From: an uncultured Candidatus Saccharibacteria bacterium
Lineage (GTDB): Bacteria; Patescibacteriota; Saccharimonadia; Saccharimonadales; JBBQAJ01
Assembly (NCBI GenBank): GCA_964597925.1
Contig: CAZQZT010000003.1
Coordinates: 35,199-99,198 of the forward strand
Direction: 5' to 3'
DNA: 64,000 nt
The stretch's first letter is position 1. Each line of letters opens with the position of its first letter. The notes beneath the pieces were generated by a model. The model did no database searches. It worked only from the letters and a program-made list of their open reading frames with translations, and had not been told where the DNA came from. Both the position numbers and the translations under genes were made by a program. Positions 126 to 12,336 of this stretch are shown here, piece by piece.

Positions 126-986
126 GTGATGGGCAAAAAACTGACAATTGAAGAACTTGAGCTCAAAGCAACCACAATTCGAGAAGACATAATCAAGATG
201 TTGGAGCATGCAAAAAGTGGACATAGTGCTGGGCCATTAGGCCTTGCAGATATATTTACGGCACTTTACCTAGATGTTCTAAAGCATGATCCTAAAAATC
301 CCGACTGGGATAAACGAGATATTTTGCTACTCAGCAATGGCCATTGCGCACCGGTACAGTATGCTGCAATGGCACATGCGGGATATTTCGATCGCAAAGA
401 ACTCATGACCCTGAGACAATTTGGCTCGAGACTACAGGGTCATCCAGAGAGAACAAAATTACCAGGACTTGAAAATACCAGCGGGCCTTTGGGATGTGGG
501 CTTAGTCAAGCCTGTGGTATGGCATTGGCGCTTCGAATGAATAAGGAATTGCACAGGTGGGTTTATGTTGTCATGGGAGATGGCGAGCAAGATGAGGGCA
601 ATGTTTGGGAAGCTGCCATGCTAGCGAACAAATATAAGCTCACCAACATTATCGCTATAACGGATCGTAACAACATACAAATAGATGGTCCTACGGAGAC
701 TGTTATGCCACTGGAAGACTTCAAGGCCAAATGGGAAGCCTTTGGCTGGCACGTTATAGACATTGATGGCAACAACATAGAAGCTGTGATTGATGCCTGT
801 GCGATGGCTAAGGCCATTGTAGAAAAACCAGTCATGATAATTGCTCATACTATCCCTGGCAAGGGTGTTGATTTTATGGAATATGATTTTCACTGGCATG
901 GTGCACAGCCAAATCACGAACAGGCTATGATTGCTCTGCACGAACTTCGTACTCTAAAAGGGAAAATTCGGAGTGAGCATGAATAA
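126..986 (+). CDS. tkt: Transketolase, N-terminal (TPP-binding) subunit of a split transketolase
   Basis: GDGEQDEGNVWEAAMLANKYKLTNIIAITDRNNIQIDG is the thiamine-PP-binding transketolase motif. It overlaps the following C-terminal subunit gene by 14 nt. Confidence 0.9.
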   Translation: MMGKKLTIEELELKATTIREDIIKMLEHAKSGHSAGPLGLADIFTALYLDVLKHDPKNPDWDKRDILLLSNGHCAPVQYAAMAHAGYFDRKELMTLRQFGSRLQGHPERTKLPGLENTSGPLGCGLSQACGMALALRMNKELHRWVYVVMGDGEQDEGNVWEAAMLANKYKLTNIIAITDRNNIQIDGPTETVMPLEDFKAKWEAFGWHVIDIDGNNIEAVIDACAMAKAIVEKPVMIIAHTIPGKGVDFMEYDFHWHGAQPNHEQAMIALHELRTLKGKIRSEHE

Positions 987-1995
987 AATGTACCTTGTTG
1001 CAGATATTTTGGACAAAGATATTTTGAAAGAGCCGAATCGCAAAGGATTCGGAAAGGGCTTATTGGAGGCTGGTCGTCGCGATACAAATGTAGTGGCTGC
1101 GTGTGCGGATTTAACTGATTCAACACAGATAAGTTTGTTTCGAGATGCGTTTCCTGACAGGTTTATAGAGATTGGAGTTGCAGAGCAAAATCTAGTAACT
1201 GTAGGTTCGGGTATGGCTGCAATGGGTAAAATCCCGTTTGTAAGTTCTTATGCCGCATTTAGCCCGGGGCGCAACTGGGAGCAGATTCGCACAACGATTT
1301 GTCTGAATGACCGACCCGTAAAGATCATTGGTTCGCATGCAGGACTTTATACTGGTAAAGACGGTGCCACGCACCAAATGCTTGAAGACATAGCGCTTAT
1401 GCGGGCCCTGCCAAATATGGTTGTATTGGCTCCCTGCGATGCCTTAGAAGCAGAAAAAATGACCATAGCTATGGCAGAAGATTCCCGACCCAACTACATG
1501 CGTTTAGCACGCGAGCCTATTCCTACGATTACTTCCGCCAAAACACCATTTGAAATCGGTAAGGCTTATGTGTATGCTCCCGGAACTGACGTGACAATAA
1601 TTGCAACTGGTACTATGACCTATCAGGCGCTAGTAGCGGCAGAGCGATTGTATAAAACGGGCGTAGACGCAGAAGTCATACACTGTCCAACAATCAAACC
1701 ACTAGACAAAGAAACTATTTTAGAAAGCGTTCACAAAACACGCGCTGTTGTAACTGTGGAAGAGGCTCAGATTAATGGTGGACTAGGCGGTGCAGTTGCC
1801 GAACTGCTGGGCGAAGAGCTACCGGTGCCGATTAGGCGCGTTGGTGTCAAGGATCACTTCGGTGAATCAGGTGACCCAGAAGAATTATTGCGACATTTTG
1901 GACTAACAGCAGAACACATCATGCTGGCCGCCCACCTAGTTGCAGATAGAAAACCCGTTTATCAATCAAAAAAGCATAACCCACATAAGTCGTGA
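973..1995 (+). CDS. tkt: Transketolase, C-terminal (pyrimidine-binding) subunit
   Basis: IEIGVAEQNLVTVGSGMAAMGKIPFVSSYAAF and the C-terminal transketolase fold motifs. Translationally coupled to the N-terminal subunit. Confidence 0.9.
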   Translation: MSMNKMYLVADILDKDILKEPNRKGFGKGLLEAGRRDTNVVAACADLTDSTQISLFRDAFPDRFIEIGVAEQNLVTVGSGMAAMGKIPFVSSYAAFSPGRNWEQIRTTICLNDRPVKIIGSHAGLYTGKDGATHQMLEDIALMRALPNMVVLAPCDALEAEKMTIAMAEDSRPNYMRLAREPIPTITSAKTPFEIGKAYVYAPGTDVTIIATGTMTYQALVAAERLYKTGVDAEVIHCPTIKPLDKETILESVHKTRAVVTVEEAQINGGLGGAVAELLGEELPVPIRRVGVKDHFGESGDPEELLRHFGLTAEHIMLAAHLVADRKPVYQSKKHNPHKS

Positions 1996-2040: not shown

Positions 2041-3012
2041 ATGCCACTAACTCTAAAACAGATGAGGGATAACTGCCAACATGGTCGCCAAGCTATGTTG
2101 CGAGCAAGAGCAGAACATTTTGCTTTAGGTGCTTTCAACATAGACAATCAAGAAACACTAATTGCCATAGCACGAGCGGCTGCCAAAAAAAACGCTCCTG
2201 TGTTAATCCAGGCTAGCCAAGGAGAAGTTGACGCTTTAGGCCTAGATAATATTCGTGACATGGTGGATAACTATAAAGAAGAACTGGGCGTAGAAATGTA
2301 TTTAAATCTTGACCACAGCCCGACAGTGGCAGGCGCTATTGCTGGCATAGAGGCAGGTTTTGAGTTCATTCACATCGACATTAGTCAGGCGCGCAAAGAT
2401 GCCGGCATTGAAGAAATTGTTTTAGAAACTCGCCAAGTAGTTGAATACGCCAAACTAACCGGCGCATCTGTAGAGAGTGAGCCTCACTATTTTGGTGGGG
2501 GCAGTAACCTACATACCGAAGCAATCGACTACGAAGAGATTAAAAAAACCTTTAGTACTCCAGGGGGGGCCAAAGGTTTTGTGGATGCAACAGATATAGA
2601 CACATTTGCTGCGGCAGTGGGCAATCTGCATGGTAAATTTCCAGTACCTAAAAAACTTGATATTGAACTCTTAGCTCAAATACGTAACGCAATTGATTGC
2701 AACATAAGTCTGCATGGCGGCAGTGGTACCCCAGGCCACTATTTTAAGTCGGCTACAAGAATAGGGGTTAGTAAGGTAAATATCAATACCGATCTGAGAG
2801 TGGCTTATCGTAACACACTAGAAAAAGTTATTAAAGAAAACAAGTCAGAATATGCTGTAGTGAAGCTTATGGACCAAGTGATTGATGCAGTGCAGGATGT
2901 GGTAGAGGCTAAAATTGATATGTTTAATGCAGCCGGTAAAGCACATGTACATAATTCTAGTATTGCCAGCGGACATAATAAAAAGGGAGTTGATGAAGAC
3001 GCCTTTAACTAG
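2041..3012 (+). CDS. fba: Class II fructose-/tagatose-bisphosphate aldolase
   Basis: Class II aldolase signatures GAFNIDNQE..., LHGGSGTP and HIDISQ, with metal-binding His residues. 323 aa. Confidence 0.85.
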   Translation: MPLTLKQMRDNCQHGRQAMLRARAEHFALGAFNIDNQETLIAIARAAAKKNAPVLIQASQGEVDALGLDNIRDMVDNYKEELGVEMYLNLDHSPTVAGAIAGIEAGFEFIHIDISQARKDAGIEEIVLETRQVVEYAKLTGASVESEPHYFGGGSNLHTEAIDYEEIKKTFSTPGGAKGFVDATDIDTFAAAVGNLHGKFPVPKKLDIELLAQIRNAIDCNISLHGGSGTPGHYFKSATRIGVSKVNINTDLRVAYRNTLEKVIKENKSEYAVVKLMDQVIDAVQDVVEAKIDMFNAAGKAHVHNSSIASGHNKKGVDEDAFN

Positions 3013-3069: not shown

Positions 3070-4071
3070 ATGAGTGAAATTGAAGTGCTAGCTATAGGCG
3101 ATGTAGTAACAGATGCATTTATAAAACTGTTAGATGACAGAGCCAGTACGTATGAAAACGAAGATGGAAAGTTTTTGGCCATGCCATTCGGCATGAAAGT
3201 ACCTTTTGACCACGCAGAAGTGATTGAGGCAGTTGGTAATGCAGCTAATGCGGCAGTTAGTTTTGCAAAGCTAGGAATTAACAGTGGCTTGATATCAAAT
3301 GTAGGGGGTGATTCGCATGGTCGCGACATTATAAAAGCACTTCATGATAAAAAAGTTGATAGTAGATTCGTAATCATAAATTCGAACAAAACTACTAACT
3401 ATCACTACGTGCTATGGTACAAAGACGAGCGTACTATCCTGATAAAACATGAAGAATACGACTATCATTGGCCACGATTCCGTGATGCCGACATCCCAAA
3501 ATGGGTATACTTTAGCTCGATAAGTGAAAAAGCTCTAGATAGATATCACGATTTGGTTGCAGACTGGCTAGAAGAAAACCCAGAAATAAAGCTGGCGTTC
3601 CAGCCTGGAACTTTCCAGCTTGAGGCTGGGGTAGAGCGTCTAAAACGGCTGTATGAGCGCACAGAAGTGCTGGTTTTTAACCGTGAAGAAGCTGTGCAGG
3701 TAACGGGCGGAGATTATGACAACGTTCACGAACTCCTAGACAGACTTCATAGTTACGGACCAAAAATTGTATGTATAACAGATGGTCCAGCCGGGGCTTA
3801 TGCCTCAGACGGGAACGTTCGCTTAAAAATGCCTCCATATCCAGACCCAGCTCCTCCTTTTGAGCGCACTGGTGCAGGCGATGCCTTTGCGAGCACATTC
3901 GTGGCTGCTCTTATCCAAGGCAATAACATCGAGGGTGCACTTCAGTGGGCGCCAATAAATTCTATGAATGTAGTCCAGCATATGGGAGCCCAAGAAGGTT
4001 TGCTGACCGAACATGAAATAGGCGAATTTCTCAAAAAAGCCCCAGAATGGTACAAGCCCGAAAAGTTCTAG
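3070..4071 (+). CDS. PfkB/ribokinase-family sugar or nucleoside kinase
   Basis: C-terminal PfkB signature TGAGDAFASTFVAAL and an N-terminal GDVVTD glycine motif. Substrate not assignable from sequence. Confidence 0.8.
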   Translation: MSEIEVLAIGDVVTDAFIKLLDDRASTYENEDGKFLAMPFGMKVPFDHAEVIEAVGNAANAAVSFAKLGINSGLISNVGGDSHGRDIIKALHDKKVDSRFVIINSNKTTNYHYVLWYKDERTILIKHEEYDYHWPRFRDADIPKWVYFSSISEKALDRYHDLVADWLEENPEIKLAFQPGTFQLEAGVERLKRLYERTEVLVFNREEAVQVTGGDYDNVHELLDRLHSYGPKIVCITDGPAGAYASDGNVRLKMPPYPDPAPPFERTGAGDAFASTFVAALIQGNNIEGALQWAPINSMNVVQHMGAQEGLLTEHEIGEFLKKAPEWYKPEKF

Positions 4072-4730
4072 CCGATTTCAGTATATAGAGAGGTGTTACC
4101 TAGTTTTTCCAACGTAAGCCTATCTACTTTTTTTCTAAATTCCCGCTCACCTTTTTCGCCATTTTTTGTTCCAGATGCTATTACTGACAATGCCACACGC
4201 CTAACGTGATTATTTTTAGACATAGGACTCGCTAACGCCACTCCGCCCAGTGACTGTTTAACCATTTTGATTTTATTGTCGCGACTTGCGCGTAGCTCTT
4301 TTTTGTCTAAATCAAATTCGTGTATTCGTTTTCGATTTTCATCCATTTTCATGTTACGGATCTCGGTGCGCTCCACAAGACTTTCTAATTTTTGAGTCGT
4401 TGTTGCGTCTCCTTGCTTTTCGGCACGAGTCTTCATACCGTTAAACATGGCTTCGGTTAATTTATGGTCTGCTATAGGGTCTAACTCTCCGCCTGAAGTC
4501 GATAGGTCATAACCTCTGACATATTTTGCTACGGTTGCCCAAAAGCCGTCTGTTTTGTCCGAAATTAAGGCAGCCCCAAGTGCTACGGTAGCTGGCCAGT
4601 TCGGGTCAGATTCACCAATCCATTCACCTATCATTTCGGCGTGCTGGTCCCGGAATGCAGTGTCCTTATCTGCTAGCCCCTGAAAACCATCAGCCAAATT
4701 TTCTCTTATTGCTTGTACATTTACAGACAT
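4068..4730 (-). CDS. Hypothetical protein (220 aa). Soluble, charged and Lys/Glu-rich, with no recognisable motif.
   Basis: Long ORF with coding-like composition, divergent from the next ORF. No Walker, HExxH or TM motifs seen. Confidence 0.5.
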   Translation of the reverse strand: MSVNVQAIRENLADGFQGLADKDTAFRDQHAEMIGEWIGESDPNWPATVALGAALISDKTDGFWATVAKYVRGYDLSTSGGELDPIADHKLTEAMFNGMKTRAEKQGDATTTQKLESLVERTEIRNMKMDENRKRIHEFDLDKKELRASRDNKIKMVKQSLGGVALASPMSKNNHVRRVALSVIASGTKNGEKGEREFRKKVDRLTLEKLGNTSLYTEIG

Positions 4731-4837
4731 ATCCCTGTCACTCTATTTGTTTCTAGGTGTTCTTGCAAGCACAAGCTTTACCAGATATGGCACTAGTGTT
4801 ATGCTTAAGCTAAGAAAAAGAAGGGCCATACAAACAA

Positions 4838-6094
4838 GTGTGCAAACTAGTCGCCGAGTTGGTCGGAGCAGATGAACAAGTTGTTCGCGAGATGTTCGTA
4901 CGACTGGAGCGTCAGTCTGGTGAGCCTGGTGTTGATCTTCGTCTGACTAGTGAGATTTATGGCAAACTGCATATGAAAATGCGAACTCTTGGTTTAGACC
5001 CAAACGACACAACTCCGCATGAGCTGTATCATTCACTGCTAAGCCTAGCGGCACTGCACGACAAGTTTCTTGCTAGGCGTATTGGCATAGATGATCCAGA
5101 AAATGCTACAGAGATAGCCAAGGCTATTGTTCGGTTGATAGAACGCATGCGTTTCTCGAAGCATTCATGGGCCTTAAAGCCTACGGCTGCTCGGCGTCTG
5201 CTTAGGCAGACTCCGCCAAAGTACCTCATGAAACTACTAAATTACCGCTCTTTAGATTCTATGCTGAAGCGTGAATCTCCTATGGAGCTTTTGGCTGTGG
5301 CTCGACACTGCGAATCTCAGAACTGGCAGAAGCGATTCGTCCATACATACAGGAAACTACAGCCAAACGACTTTGAAGTACGCGATATAGAAGTAATATA
5401 TCTTGCCGATAACCGCTGGGAGGCTGTTGGGGATATGTTTAGTAGTACAAAGCATAACAACATTATTCACACGCCAGAAGTGGGCGTTGTTGCTATTTTG
5501 CCAGCCAAAGTAGAGAAACGTACTGGGCTTACGCTCACGACACTGCTACTTACTTTGCACTATATAAACGAAATAAGAGTCTTTAGTACTTACTGTAAAT
5601 TTCATCACATGCGTACGGACTTTGGCGGTTTGCTAGTTGAGCATTTGCTGCACGAAAAACAAGACCACGTAGCCTTAGTAGGACAGCCCGTACACTGGCG
5701 AGTGGTGCATCGGTACTACGGTACGAGAGATCGATTTAACCATCCAGAAATATTTGAGCCTCACGTACAACCAGAAGATTTAACTTATCGCAAAGCAGAG
5801 GCAATACTTTATCGTCTGGAGCCTGCACTTCATTTTTGGCATGACACAGACTATGTGGGCTTGCCAGAAACTGACGGACCGATAAGTTTTAGTCTTACAG
5901 ATATGGCGATGAATCTAGTAAATGGATTGCCGTATGAAAAGAGAGCTTATTATCACATGCAGGATTCACTGTGGAACGAAGTGTATAGTCGATATATAGG
6001 TCAGACAAGTTTTGAGAAGCAAATGTTGCAGCAGCTGGACGAACAGCCAGTTTTGGCTGAACAGCCAGCCATGAGTATGGAGTTCGTGCTATAG
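4838..6094 (+). CDS. Hypothetical protein (418 aa, GTG start). His-rich, with no recognisable catalytic motif.
   Basis: Long ORF with no internal stops. GTG at 4838 sits about 12 nt downstream of AAGAAGGG. No NTPase or TM motifs. Confidence 0.5.
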   Translation: MCKLVAELVGADEQVVREMFVRLERQSGEPGVDLRLTSEIYGKLHMKMRTLGLDPNDTTPHELYHSLLSLAALHDKFLARRIGIDDPENATEIAKAIVRLIERMRFSKHSWALKPTAARRLLRQTPPKYLMKLLNYRSLDSMLKRESPMELLAVARHCESQNWQKRFVHTYRKLQPNDFEVRDIEVIYLADNRWEAVGDMFSSTKHNNIIHTPEVGVVAILPAKVEKRTGLTLTTLLLTLHYINEIRVFSTYCKFHHMRTDFGGLLVEHLLHEKQDHVALVGQPVHWRVVHRYYGTRDRFNHPEIFEPHVQPEDLTYRKAEAILYRLEPALHFWHDTDYVGLPETDGPISFSLTDMAMNLVNGLPYEKRAYYHMQDSLWNEVYSRYIGQTSFEKQMLQQLDEQPVLAEQPAMSMEFVL

Positions 6095-6239
6095 ACCGCT
6101 TGTCAAACCCTAGTCTACGAAAGACATAGAGTAACCGCAGCCTAAACGGTATTTTCTCACCGACGTTTCTAAGTATAAGTCTCCTCTAAACAAACCGCTC
6201 ATGCTACAATTCCTGTATGCATTTTCCTAAGGTTGGGGT

Positions 6240-6860
6240 TTGGAAAGAGGTCTCGTGAACTATGCCATTTGCCTATCTGGCGCCGCGTCTGGTAATACGG
6301 TTGATTCTTCTCACGAAAACGCCAGCAAACTAGGGTTTGCTATTGCTAAAAGTGGTCACATAATCACTACGGGAGCCACCGTGGGACTTCCTTTTTATGC
6401 CGCCTTAGCTGCAAAAGAGGCTGGTGGCATGAGCATAGGTTTTTCTCCTGGAGCTAGTCTGCGAGAGCATGTTTCTAAATACAGGCTTCCGATAGGTGTT
6501 TATGACTATATCAACTTTACGGGTATGCACTACGTGGGCCGTGATGTGCATTTAGTGCAATCCAGTGACGCTATAATCACGGTTGGCGGACGTTTTGGCA
6601 GTTTGCACGAATTTACGACTGCACTCCAGTGTAGAATGCCCTGTGGAGTTCTTTTAGGTAGCGGCGGAACAGCAGACATAATACCTGAGCTTATGCAAAA
6701 ACTAGAGCCCATAAATGCTGATATGCTGGTTTACGACACCGATCCAGAAATGTTGGTGGCAAAAATCATCGCCATATTAGATAAAGAATACGAAGACATA
6801 AATACTAAAGCACTCAGTGCTCATTGGTTCATGGAAAATAATCATCACCACAAGGGCTAA
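6240..6860 (+). CDS. LOG/TIGR00725-family (SLOG) Rossmann-fold nucleotide-binding protein
   Basis: The pattern AICLSGAASGN...TTGATVG..AALAAKEAGG.SIGFSPG...SDAIITVGGRFGSLHEF matches the lysine-decarboxylase-like/LOG (TIGR00725) family consensus. Confidence 0.7.
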   Translation: MERGLVNYAICLSGAASGNTVDSSHENASKLGFAIAKSGHIITTGATVGLPFYAALAAKEAGGMSIGFSPGASLREHVSKYRLPIGVYDYINFTGMHYVGRDVHLVQSSDAIITVGGRFGSLHEFTTALQCRMPCGVLLGSGGTADIIPELMQKLEPINADMLVYDTDPEMLVAKIIAILDKEYEDINTKALSAHWFMENNHHHKG

Positions 6861-6917
6861 AAAAGTAGTCCGACAAATAGCGGACTGATATAGTGCAATA
6901 AGTACTGCTACAATGTA

Positions 6918-8885
6918 ATGATGACTAAATTTAGAATAACTTCTGGCTATAAGCCTACGGGAGATCAGCCGGCGGCTATTGCTGCTCTCACTGATGGTTT
7001 GAATAAGGGCGTCAAAGAACAGACGCTGATGGGCGTAACTGGCTCTGGCAAAACTTTTACCATGGCAAACTTGATTCAAAACACCCAGAAGCCCACTCTT
7101 ATCTTGAGCCATAATAAAACATTGGCTGCCCAGCTGTACAACGAGTTCAAGAGTTTCTTTCCAGATAATGCCGTCCACTACTTCGTTAGCTATTTTGATT
7201 ATTATCAGCCAGAAGCATATATAGCACGCAGCGATACATATATAGAAAAAGACAGTCAAATAAACGAAGAGATTGATAGATTGCGACATGCTGCCACCGA
7301 CTCTCTATTAACACGAAGAGATGTAATTATTGTGGCGAGCGTGAGTTGTATTTATGGAATTGGTTCAGTAGAGGACTACGGTAACCTAGCTGTAAAAGTG
7401 AAAACCGGGGAACGACGTGTCCGCGACAAGCTGCTCAGACAGCTCACAGACATACAATACCAGCGCAACGACATAGATTTTCACAGAGGTACATTTAGGG
7501 TTCGCGGTGATGTGTTGGATATATTTCCGGCCGGTGAAGAGGTTGCCTACAGAGTTGAGTTTTTTGGTGATGAAATAGATCGTATAACCCAGATTGATCC
7601 GCTGACTGGGGAGATACTTTCCAAACTAGAAGAGTTAAAAGTATTTCCAAGTAGCCACTACGTTACGCCGGGAGATAAGCTCAAAACAGCGATGGTAAAG
7701 ATCCAGCAAGAGCTTGACGAGCGCCTGGCGTACTTTAATAAGCACGGACTTTTACTAGAAGCACAGCGCCTACAGCAGCGCACTAGATTTGACCTAGAAA
7801 TGTTAGAAGAGACGGGTTTTGTGAAGGGTATAGAAAACTATAGTAGATACCTGACTGATCGTGAGCAAGGTGAACAGCCGGCCACACTCTTAGATTACTT
7901 CCCGGATGACTACCTATTATTGGTAGATGAATCGCACATGAGTATGCCTCAGGTACGAGGGATGTATAACGGAGACAGGGCGCGTAAAGAAGTGTTGGTA
8001 GAGCATGGATTTCGCCTGCCAAGCGCATTAGATAATAGACCGCTTACATTTACTGAGTTTGAAAAGCATATCAACAAAGTAGTGTATGTAAGTGCTACGC
8101 CAGCTGAGTATGAGTTATCTCATAGCCCCGAGCCGGTTCAACAAATAATACGTCCGACCGGCTTGACCGATCCAGATATAGAAGTCCGTCCTATAGACGG
8201 TCAAATTGATGACTTACTACACGAAATCAGAGAAACAATCACTAAACGCCAGAGAGTTTTGGTAACAACGCTGACCAAACGTATGTCTGAAGATCTGACT
8301 GATTACCTAAAAGAACTAAACGTAAAGGTCACGTATTTGCACAGTGATGTGGACACACTGGATAGAACTGACATATTACGTGATTTGCGACTAGGCGTAT
8401 ATGACGTGGTAGTTGGGATTAACTTACTAAGAGAAGGCTTGGACTTGCCTGAGGTCAGCCTGGTTGCAATCCTAGATGCTGACAAAGAGGGTTTTTTACG
8501 TAGTGAACAGGCGTTAGTACAAACAGTTGGTCGTGCCGCACGGCATATTGAAGGTCGTGTGCTTATGTATGCAGACCGCATAACTGGAAGTATGCAGCGG
8601 ACCATAGATGAGACGAATCGTCGTCGTAAAATACAAGAAGACTACAACAAAAAACATGGCATTACGCCAGAGGGAATATCGCGGTCTGTAGAAAAGGGTA
8701 TGCGAGCAGATTTGCCCGACAAAGCTAAAAAAGCCAAACTGGATCTAAGGAAGATACCAAAAGATGAGTACGGCCACCTTATTCGTGACCTAGCCTCTCA
8801 GATGGACCTAGCAAGCGCAAACCTAGAGTTTGAAAAAGCCGCAGAACTCCGCGATATAATAGCTGACATTAAGTCCAAACTCTGA
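6918..8885 (+). CDS. uvrB: Excinuclease ABC subunit B
   Basis: N-terminal [14 protein letters not shown], Walker [11 protein letters not shown], helicase motifs and a C-terminal UVR domain ([13 protein letters not shown]). 655 aa. Confidence 0.95.
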
Positions 8886-10478: not shown

Positions 10479-11899
10479 TAGGGTGGCAAAGTATAGCTCA
10501 GATAGCATCCAATGTTCAGTCTGGTAAAGTCAAGGCGACAGATTTAGTGAATCAAGCTTTGGCAACGATTGAAGAAAAGAGCGAATTTAATGCCGTAATA
10601 GCAACTATTGAAAAAAGGGCAAAAGAACGCGCCCAAGAAATAGACCAGCACGTTGCAAAAGGCGAAAAGGTTGGTCGACTGGCAGGCGTGCCTTTCATTG
10701 CAAAAGATAACTTCCTTACTTTCGGCGTAGAAACCACGGCTGCCAGCAATATCCTTAAAGGCTTCAACGCTCCCTACCAATCAACGGCCATTGAAAAATT
10801 AGAAGCTGAGGGAGCAATATGCGTGGCAAAGGCTAATTTGGACGCTTTTGCTCATGGCTCAAGTACCGAAAACAGCGACTTTCAAACTACTAAAAATCCC
10901 CATGACAAAACACGTGTTCCTGGTGGTTCGTCTGGAGGCTCAGCAGCAGCAGTTATTTTAGACATGGCTCCATTTGCACTAGGTACGGATACGGGTGGTT
11001 CTATTCGATTGCCTGCAGCATTTTGCGGTGCGGTAGGTTACAAGCCAACCTATGGGCTGGTATCTCGCAGCGGTGTAGTAGCAATGGCAAGTAGTACGGA
11101 CGTGATTGGTCCGCTGACACGGACCGTCGAAGACGCGGCACTGGTCCTAGATGTAATGTCAGGACGAGATGAGCTAGATAGCACTATGATCGAGCGTGAC
11201 AAAACGCCTTATACTGACCTAAAGTTTGACGTTAAGGGTAAAAAAATAGGCATAATCAGCGAATACATGCGCGAAGGTTTAAGCGAAGACGTTAGAAGCA
11301 AAATTGAAACAGCTGCAGACAAGTTAGGCTTGGCAGGTGCGGTGCCTTTTAGCATCAGCTTGCCCAGCCTGCCCTTGGCATTGGCTTGTTACTACATTAT
11401 TTGTCCTGCGGAAGTCAGTAGTAACCTTAGCAGATATGATGGTCAAAAGTATGGGTACTCTCATGTACAAGCCAAAAATCTGGACGACAGCTATAACTGG
11501 TCTCGTAGCGAGGGCTTTGGCAAGGAAGCAAAAAGAAGGATTATGATGGGTACCTATGTTCTGAGCAGTGGTTACTATGATGCATACTATAAAAAAGCCC
11601 AGCAGCTTAGGACAAAATTGGTTCAGGAGTTCGAAGAGGCTTTCACTAAAGTTGATTTTTTGCTGGGTCCTACTACTCCTACTACTGCATTTGCGATTGG
11701 TGAAAATACAGATGACCCATTGCAGATGTATTTGAGAGATATTATGACGGTAGCCGTAAACCTGGTTGGCGTACCTGCCATCAGTATACCCGCTGGTAAT
11801 GTTGATGGTTTACCGGTTGGTCTTCAGCTTATTGCTCCACAGCATGGCGACAGGAAACTCCTAGCGTTAGCCCAAAAAACTGAGGAGTTGTTGGCATGA
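10475..11899 (+). CDS. gatA: Glutamyl-tRNA(Gln) amidotransferase subunit A
   Basis: Amidase signature GGSSGGSAAAV, with a Ser-cisSer-Lys triad context. Confidence 0.95.
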   Translation: MIGWQSIAQIASNVQSGKVKATDLVNQALATIEEKSEFNAVIATIEKRAKERAQEIDQHVAKGEKVGRLAGVPFIAKDNFLTFGVETTAASNILKGFNAPYQSTAIEKLEAEGAICVAKANLDAFAHGSSTENSDFQTTKNPHDKTRVPGGSSGGSAAAVILDMAPFALGTDTGGSIRLPAAFCGAVGYKPTYGLVSRSGVVAMASSTDVIGPLTRTVEDAALVLDVMSGRDELDSTMIERDKTPYTDLKFDVKGKKIGIISEYMREGLSEDVRSKIETAADKLGLAGAVPFSISLPSLPLALACYYIICPAEVSSNLSRYDGQKYGYSHVQAKNLDDSYNWSRSEGFGKEAKRRIMMGTYVLSSGYYDAYYKKAQQLRTKLVQEFEEAFTKVDFLLGPTTPTTAFAIGENTDDPLQMYLRDIMTVAVNLVGVPAISIPAGNVDGLPVGLQLIAPQHGDRKLLALAQKTEELLA

Positions 11900-12336
11900 A
11901 TGTTGGGTTGATTATCTCCACAAGTCTTGGCGTAATCGTGGTACTGATTGTGGGAACAGTATTTGCTATCAAGCTTCCCAAAAAGCTCAAAGTAGATAGA
12001 TTTATTGCTAGCTGGCAAGAATTGCAAAGCTGTTGTAGAGACAAAGCCACCTGGGCTCAAGCGATTACGCAAGCAGATAAATTGCTAGACGTAGCTCTCA
12101 AAAAGCGAAAGCTCAAAGGCAAAACTATGGGCGAGAGAATGGTGTCGGCCCAGCGTTTATTTACAGATAACGATGATGTTTGGTTTTCTCATAATTTGGC
12201 AAAAAAACTAACAGTTCAGATGGATATGAGGCTTAAAGAGTCAGACGTAAAAGACGCACTCATGGGATTTAGACAAGCCTTGCGTGATATAGGCGCCTTG
12301 CCGCCTGCTGGTAAAGAGGTGTCTGATGATAGCTAA
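11896..12336 (+). CDS. Small membrane protein (146 aa) inserted between gatA and gatB
   Basis: N-terminal hydrophobic helix IISTSLGVIVVLIVGTVFAI. Overlaps gatA and gatB by a few nt, so it appears translationally coupled. Confidence 0.5.
   Translation: MNVGLIISTSLGVIVVLIVGTVFAIKLPKKLKVDRFIASWQELQSCCRDKATWAQAITQADKLLDVALKKRKLKGKTMGERMVSAQRLFTDNDDVWFSHNLAKKLTVQMDMRLKESDVKDALMGFRQALRDIGALPPAGKEVSDDS

Follow-up and report, generated by a model that had tools for sequence, protein, structure and literature searches.

The window analyzed here is a stretch of 64,000 nucleotides from an uncultured Candidatus Saccharibacteria bacterium (assembly GCA_964597925.1, contig CAZQZT010000003.1, positions 35,199 to 99,198). 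Between the gene of a PfkB-family kinase and uvrB it encodes three proteins that are the subject of this report: a 220-amino-acid protein on the minus strand (p220), a 418-amino-acid protein on the plus strand (here called X) and, downstream of X, a Rossmann protein of the SLOG superfamily. The list of open reading frames (ORFs) agrees with a preliminary description of this DNA on the position of all three and on the length of the spacer, 107 base pairs (bp), between the divergent p220 and X genes. That description took the trio for a system-like cluster and conjectured a role in conflict or signaling. We find here a housekeeping module that includes an uncharacterized partner protein, X, and lies beside an atypical homolog of the cytidine diphosphate (CDP)-alcohol phosphotransferases; nothing points to a new kind of system.

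Conservation of X and the SLOG gene

X is a member of a large family. A protein search recovered more than 1400 homologs of about 418 amino acids, and among 1.84 billion representatives the family numbers 920 or more clusters (50% identity). The names of the homologs and the gene content place the window genome in Saccharibacteria (Patescibacteria). Relatives are present in 274 species-representative genomes of a GTDB-based collection, and the best 80 of these 274 are all Saccharibacteria-type metagenome-assembled genomes (MAGs). The loci of these 80 best species genomes with X were surveyed by tblastn, 77 being informative for the SLOG gene.

At 69 of the 77 loci the SLOG gene is directly downstream of X on the same strand, the median gap being 27 bp with some overlaps, and in one lineage the pair is fused; the co-occurrence and adjacency that the preliminary description had proposed to check are thus a property of these two genes. 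The conserved neighborhood is wider still, with pfkB upstream of X on the same strand at every informative locus (75/75) and uvrB downstream of the pair at 65 of 66, in the order rpiB, rpe, tktN, tktC, fba, pfkB, X, SLOG, uvrB, gatC, gatA. Judged by Pfam labels, three diverged X homologs (L001, L003, and L005) occupy the same neighborhood with an LDcluster4 gene after X, and locus L089 shares the gene order of the window. The X–SLOG module is vertically inherited in Saccharibacteria, at the end of a pentose-phosphate/glycolysis block. p220 falls outside it, because loci L039 and L041 have a p220-type gene but no SLOG gene, and most X–SLOG loci are without a gene of the p220 type. The idea of a system-like cluster therefore survives for X plus SLOG and fails for the three genes together, a p220-type gene being found at 19 of the 80 loci; the relevant unit is a two-gene module.

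The SLOG gene has been lost beside X in L041 and L061. At two further loci a small protein is encoded between X and uvrB in place of the SLOG gene (L032, 7307-8044; L084, 7051-7674); it has an N-terminal hydrophobic anchor and the shared motif ECAAAGxPxMESYPEQCAANG. Two MAGs labeled Candidatus Limnocylindrales/Limnocylindria (L013 and L051) carry the complete Saccharibacteria synteny around X, and their contigs are probably mis-binned or mislabeled.

Exchange with canonical LOG enzymes

X is also associated with canonical LOG enzymes. In P0138, a protein of 658 amino acids encoded in the identical syntenic position on an 809-kb contig, X (residues 1-410) and a canonical LOG domain form a single chain, the LOG domain passing the TIGR00730 model (144.5 bits against a cutoff of 96.35). 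Loci L077 and L085 have no downstream cluster-4 SLOG gene; there a canonical LOG gene lies divergently beside X, between pfkB and X, and its product scores 158 and 145 bits with TIGR00730 and carries the motif PGGFGTLDE. X is thus found in three architectures, with a downstream cluster-4 SLOG gene, in a LOG fusion, or next to a divergent LOG gene, which implies that the cluster-4 protein and canonical LOG are functionally interchangeable beside X.

The SLOG protein

The label LOG/TIGR00725 (SLOG) given in the preliminary description is correct as to the superfamily. The protein matches PF18306 (SLOG cluster 4) with 92.3 bits against a gathering threshold of 26.3 (E 2.9e-26), residues 10-171 aligning to model positions 4-149 of 151. 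With TIGR00725 it scores 58.9 bits, under the curated cutoff of 106.9, and is a relative of that family rather than a member. It is also below the LOG and PpnN equivalog cutoffs (NF058542, 23 bits against 300). A search of PDB sequences returned 1rcu, the molybdenum cofactor (MoCo) carrier protein 2iz5, and 6y01 as its closest solved relatives. The glycine-rich loops do not vary among 74 orthologs, nor do R101 and E124 of the motif GGRxGxLHE, two residues that may correspond to the catalytic Arg of LOG enzymes and the Glu of their motif PGGxGTxxE. To our knowledge no function has been established for bacterial members of SLOG cluster 4; our literature search yielded nothing relevant on TIGR00725 (full text) or LDcluster4, and for the SLOG superfamily it brought up mainly work about other SLOG proteins.

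The TTG start called for this ORF at 6240 is doubtful, since a Shine-Dalgarno-like stretch, GAAAGAGG, precedes a GTG codon of the same frame at 6255, and a collection of 15 billion proteins has no entry for the protein that begins at the TTG. The true start may be this GTG.

Protein X

Searches of Pfam, NCBIfam, and PADLOC with 36 members of the X family gave no family match, and at E<=1 Pfam returned only scattered single matches. The AlphaFold2 (AF2) model of X (pLDDT 78, pTM 0.77) combines a helical N-terminal part with one of mixed alpha/beta structure. Foldseek found no match for it in the PDB (best E 0.95, TM-score ~0.1) or in BFVD (best E 0.21), and the family profile compared with PDB sequences hit one de novo protein (E 0.18) and nothing else. 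Profile searches and structure prediction therefore bear out the earlier description of the 418-amino-acid protein as unannotatable: it has no recognizable family or fold. HD-domain, PD-(D/E)xK, MazG-like, and nucleoside-hydrolase identities were considered for X and rejected, their motifs (assessed by eye) being at odds with the conserved residues and the predicted secondary structure and no search tool having pointed to any of them.

Eight residues (E24, D33, E62, P127, W287, W334, D355, and Y386) are invariant across members down to 26% identity and a further nine (D54, D57, K114, R137, S138, S141, K144, E159, and D178) nearly so, an acidic, basic, and aromatic set that would suit a ligand site or an active site. 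The GTG start of the ORF is supported by homologs that begin at the same MCKL/MSKL position. X had been described as His-rich, which is true only in a mild sense (5.3% His against 4.9% in the adjacent transketolase), and its His residues vary within the wider family. One homolog of 582 amino acids (P0133) has an extra N-terminal copy of approximately the first 100 residues of X before a full-length X, a duplication that hints at the N-terminal helical part being a separable domain.

Proposed role of the module

We propose that the SLOG protein, partnered by X, is a LOG-type phosphoribohydrolase that supplies ribose-5-phosphate to the products of the neighboring pentose-phosphate genes, and give this reading a probability of roughly 0.45. 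The substrates of the SLOG protein would be nucleoside 5'-monophosphates or a close ribosyl-5'-phosphate compound; it would cleave their N-glycosidic bond and so yield a free base and ribose-5-phosphate, the latter passing directly to the enzymes of rpiB, rpe, and tkt just upstream. The PfkB kinase may offer a parallel entry, its matches to ribokinase and ribose-1-phosphate kinase being sub-threshold. X would be a physical partner that either regulates the LOG-type enzyme or performs an adjacent step or extends the reaction. Saccharibacteria cannot synthesize nucleotides and subsist on what they scavenge. X, a conserved 418-amino-acid protein tied to a LOG-type enzyme within the central carbon operon of tiny genomes, probably marks a missing piece in the conversion of scavenged nucleotides to energy and carbon by these episymbionts. 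Should X moreover be a new-fold protein in an obligate complex with LOG-type phosphoribohydrolases, a more tentative reading, the complex would give these ultra-small episymbionts a hitherto undescribed way of channeling scavenged nucleotides into the pentose-phosphate pathway.

Published work on the metabolism of the group bears on this proposal. Saccharibacteria are without 6-phosphofructokinase and mostly without transaldolase, and their carbon moves through the pentose-phosphate pathway (Starr et al. 2018, PMC6031116). The same study interpreted the LOG of Saccharibacteria as a cytokinin enzyme; the constant position of LOG genes among those of sugar-phosphate metabolism speaks for a metabolic role and against this plant-hormone reading. 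According to the supplementary tables of Wang et al. (2023, PMC10633639), the cultured Southlakia epibionticum has a block of rpe, tkt, aldolase, PfkB (SEML1_0547), SLOG, small hypotheticals, and uvrB, in which SEML1_0546, a "LOG family protein" with PF18306, is encoded 9 bp downstream of SEML1_0547. This block is listed without X, and the tie of SLOG to the sugar-phosphate genes therefore extends beyond the X family, X being an add-on to SLOG as its partner. The tables also list a second SLOG cluster-4 gene of Southlakia, beside a gene for a phosphoribosyltransferase-domain protein (SEML1_0423/0424), a pairing that is a further link of the SLOG family to base and nucleotide metabolism.

Several observations weigh against the proposed role. 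The SLOG protein stays under the cutoffs of the LOG models (PF03641, 22.1 bits against 27; TIGR00730, 38.4 against 96.35), the closest relative for which both a structure and a role are known, the MoCo carrier protein, is a ligand carrier and not an enzyme, and a literature search found no enzyme assay for any SLOG cluster-4 or TIGR00725-type protein. Sequence and structure searches with X gave no hint of its chemistry. X is missing at the pfkB–SLOG junction in the Southlakia tables, so the SLOG protein can work without it, and in the transposon sequencing data of the same supplement the SLOG gene is non-essential, PfkB, aldolase, and rpe showing growth defects (PMC10633639). The synteny with the pentose-phosphate genes could also be historical, as it presumably is for uvrB.

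It is possible, though unlikely in our estimation, that the SLOG protein has no catalytic activity and only binds or senses a ligand, as do the MoCo carrier protein and the SLOG domain of ThsA. It would report the level of a nucleotide or sugar phosphate to X, and X would then regulate carbon flux or another housekeeping process. Such a function would be in accord with the presence of 2iz5 among the closest solved relatives and with the scores below the catalytic LOG cut-offs, and the many invariant polar residues of X mean that X could be the active component. The invariance of R101 and E124 speaks against it, as does the identity of the partner of X in three lineages, a canonical LOG of the TIGR00730 type in which the PGGxGTxxE and GGGxGxME motifs are complete; this points to an equivalent enzymatic role.

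We consider it improbable that the adjacency has no functional meaning and that X, SLOG, p220, pfkB, and uvrB were simply frozen by synteny in streamlined genomes. The equally conserved neighbors uvrB and gatCAB, with obviously unrelated roles, would fit this explanation, as would the lack of X from its position in Southlakia and the two losses of the SLOG gene beside X. Frozen synteny is nevertheless inadequate, because a different LOG paralog was independently recruited beside X on the other side and strand and because X is fused to LOG in P0138.

The conjectured conflict, anti-phage, or signaling system, in which SLOG would sense a nucleotide second messenger with X and/or p220 as effectors, draws on the sensor function of SLOG domains in Thoeris and related systems and on the unrecognized type of X, with which an effector chemistry is compatible, and is very improbable: p220, X, SLOG, and the nearby 397-amino-acid protein (p397) have no PADLOC match at E<=1, no nuclease, NADase, TIR, or transmembrane effector signature was found in Pfam, NCBIfam, or PADLOC, no relatives of X occur on 2.9 million viral contigs, p220 and SLOG genes occur independently, and X holds a fixed chromosomal position within a core metabolic block of small genomes in at least 75 species. 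A comparison of base composition and codon usage with the flanks, also suggested at the outset, gave no foreign signal: in GC content, in GC content at third codon positions (GC3), and in their use of codons the three genes resemble their surroundings.

p220, a hydrophilic relative of PgsA

The 220-amino-acid protein had been regarded as unannotatable, and this can be revised: it has a CDP-alcohol phosphotransferase-type signature, in the form D58-x2-D61-G62-x2-A65 ... G80-x3-D84-x3-D88. On its own p220 is sub-threshold with PF01066 (E 0.009, 16.8 bits against 22), and only five close relatives were found among 5.8 billion proteins, all in the same position and convergent with pfkB. A broader family is visible in the locus survey. 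The gap between pfkB and X measures 490-2170 bp at 25 of the 77 loci and at most 220 bp at the others, and this gap is where the 19 p220 homologs lie. Fifteen are on the minus strand and encode 210-330 amino acids; the remaining four are on the plus strand and encode about 490, with an N-terminal HAD domain and a C-terminal hydrophilic CDP-alcohol phosphotransferase domain. The best match of the HAD domain is the YqeG family, sub-threshold, and the four fusions resemble a phosphatidylglycerophosphate (PGP) synthase and a PGP phosphatase in one chain.

Gap relatives pass PF01066 (L045 51.5, L009 38.5, L041 34.8, and L054 32.9 bits), and a hidden Markov model of the p220 clade matches the gap ORF of L054 (E 1e-30). 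Profile A3 of the p220 family matches Staphylococcus aureus PgsA (7drj, E 2.8e-9), and hhalign of the family profile with Escherichia coli PgsA gives a probability of 97% over 132 columns (E 1.2e-10). The assignment of p220 itself is transitive, via L054 and the wider syntenic family, because the narrow p220 clade aligned with PgsA over the motif only (hhalign probability 2.8%). When profile A3 was used for a large protein search, only 10 proteins came back and the family grew no further. The best matches to the AF2 model of p220 (pLDDT 80) are the phosphatidylinositol-phosphate synthases 5d92 and 6h5a (probability 0.95-0.99, TM-score ~0.5).

Across 22 family sequences D58, G62, D84, D88, R125, and R133 are invariant. 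In the p220 clade Thr replaces the Arg of the DGxxAR motif and the spacer is lengthened to 14 residues (7-12 in the signature); in some relatives the second Asp of the signature is Glu. The family is hydrophilic throughout. p220 has 31% charged residues, a grand average of hydropathy (GRAVY) of -0.66, and a maximal 19-residue Kyte-Doolittle window of 0.83, in agreement with its initial characterization as charged and free of transmembrane segments. The 22 members range from -0.66 to 0.00 in GRAVY and from 20% to 33% in charged residues, and in 19 of them every 19-residue window stays below the usual transmembrane threshold of 1.6; E. coli PgsA, scored alike, has a GRAVY of +0.82, a maximal window of 2.50, and 13% charged residues. 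The p220 family thus comprises fast-evolving PgsA-like CDP-alcohol phosphotransferase homologs of Saccharibacteria-type genomes, and p220 has kept the metal-binding Asp motif and lost the transmembrane hydrophobicity. We know of no exception to the rule that characterized CDP-alcohol phosphotransferases are polytopic membrane proteins, and our literature search found no soluble one. No canonical pgsA was found in the window or in the related loci retrieved.

p220 might be an ordinary phosphatidylglycerophosphate synthase, membrane-associated despite its composition, that makes phosphatidylglycerol from CDP-diacylglycerol. The homology spans PgsA from the first transmembrane helix to the GKxKT motif, and in four genomes the domain is fused to a YqeG-type HAD-IIIA phosphatase, the family that contains the PGP phosphatase GEP4. 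We nonetheless hold this to be doubtful in view of the sub-threshold windows of 19 of the 22 members, the divergence of the family from E. coli PgsA in GRAVY and charge, and the replaced Arg and longer motif spacing of the window clade. The combined claim, that X is a new-fold obligate partner of LOG and that the p220 family are soluble, catalytic CDP-alcohol phosphotransferases, is likewise tentative and, taken jointly, rather unlikely. Were it true, the p220 family would be a natural water-soluble descendant of polytopic membrane enzymes, acting on soluble CDP-alcohols.

The stop codons of pfkB and p220, which are on opposite strands, overlap in the 4-bp palindrome CTAG (window 4068-4071), and the same 4-bp overlap of gene ends is seen in two diverged genomes (L006, 2661-2664; L007, 3162-3165). 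This recurrence suggests a long residence of the p220 gene rather than a recent insertion. The divergent arrangement of p220 and X is not a general feature, being found in a minority of the related genomes.

Neighboring genes and intergenic regions

The features of the locus are listed in table 1. The top NCBIfam matches of the PfkB kinase are ribokinase, IolC, and ribose-1-phosphate kinase, each below its cutoff. We infer that in the window genome the 107-bp divergent region holds the promoters of p220 and X; a promoter scan found no sigma-70-like match within 4731-4837, and promoter-like sites around the locus were no more frequent than in shuffled sequence. An Rfam scan of 3900-7000 gave a single sub-threshold chance match, and folding of the X–SLOG spacer was not significant (z = -1.29).

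Table 1. Genes and other features of the locus, with positions in the window unless a related locus (L number) is named.
Feature	Coordinates	Strand	Remarks
tkt, split in two ORFs	126-986, 973-1995	+	ORF list
Class II fructose-bisphosphate aldolase (fba)	2041-3012	+	ORF list; upstream part of sugar-phosphate block
PfkB/ribokinase-family sugar or nucleoside kinase	3070-4071	+	PF00294, E 8.6e-34
p220, 220 amino acids, ATG start	4068-4730	-	Hydrophilic homolog of CDP-alcohol phosphotransferases
Divergent intergenic region, 107 bp	4731-4837	none	Between p220 and X
X, 418 amino acids, GTG start	4838-6094	+	Member of large uncharacterized family
SLOG cluster-4 protein, 206 amino acids, TTG start as called	6240-6860	+	PF18306
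uvrB	6918-8885	+	Downstream neighbor of X–SLOG pair
p397, 397 amino acids	8889-10082	-	Between uvrB and gatC
HAD-CDP-alcohol phosphotransferase fusions	L009 4454-5926, L010 4468-5916, L011 4469-5935, L080 4469-5956	+	

In the window gatC and gatA follow p397, which has a weak alpha/beta-hydrolase hint (E 0.06) and otherwise no family match; by tblastn, no more than about 7 of the 80 related loci have a homolog there. A conserved ORF of ~140-148 amino acids without a Pfam family lies directly 3' of gatA in the window (11896-12336, plus strand) and between gatA and gatB in the diverged Saccharibacteria loci L001 (11766-12212) and L089 (12710-13129).

Comparison with known systems

Like the SLOG-sensor defense systems (Thoeris ThsA and its relatives), the module combines a SLOG-fold domain with a second component. 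It differs from them in having no SIR2, TIR, or transmembrane effector and no PADLOC match, and in being fixed in a housekeeping context rather than mobile. SLOG cluster 4 and TIGR00725-type proteins, among them Thermotoga maritima 1rcu and Chlamydomonas 2iz5, supply both the best Pfam family and the best PDB-sequence matches; the difference here is the dedicated 418-amino-acid partner, of which our literature search found no description.

The LOG/TIGR00730 phosphoribohydrolases, which include the cytokinin riboside 5'-monophosphate phosphoribohydrolases and the nucleotide 5'-monophosphate nucleosidase PpnN of E. coli, share with the SLOG protein the SLOG Rossmann superfamily, a glycine-rich phosphate loop, a GGxxG[ST]xxE-type motif, and, putatively, the Arg and Glu that are invariant in its orthologs. 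The window motif, GGRFGSLHE, is one residue longer, and X has no kinship with the accessory domains on either side of LOG in PpnN (0.4% probability when the X profile was compared with the E. coli protein by hhalign). Canonical LOG takes the place of the cluster-4 protein next to X or is fused to X.

From PgsA and other CDP-alcohol phosphotransferases (PF01066; 7drj, 5d92, and 6h5a), the p220 family differs in being essentially without hydrophobic transmembrane segments where about six helices are expected, and the p220 clade in its Thr for the motif Arg and its longer spacer. If it is indeed a homolog without transmembrane segments, p220 would be a rare natural soluble form of a membrane enzyme fold, of interest to lipid biochemists and protein designers. 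With these enzymes the p220 family shares, for the most part, the signature DxxDGxxAR...GxxxDxxxD, and also further conserved Arg and GKxK positions and a predicted six-helix bundle of equal size.

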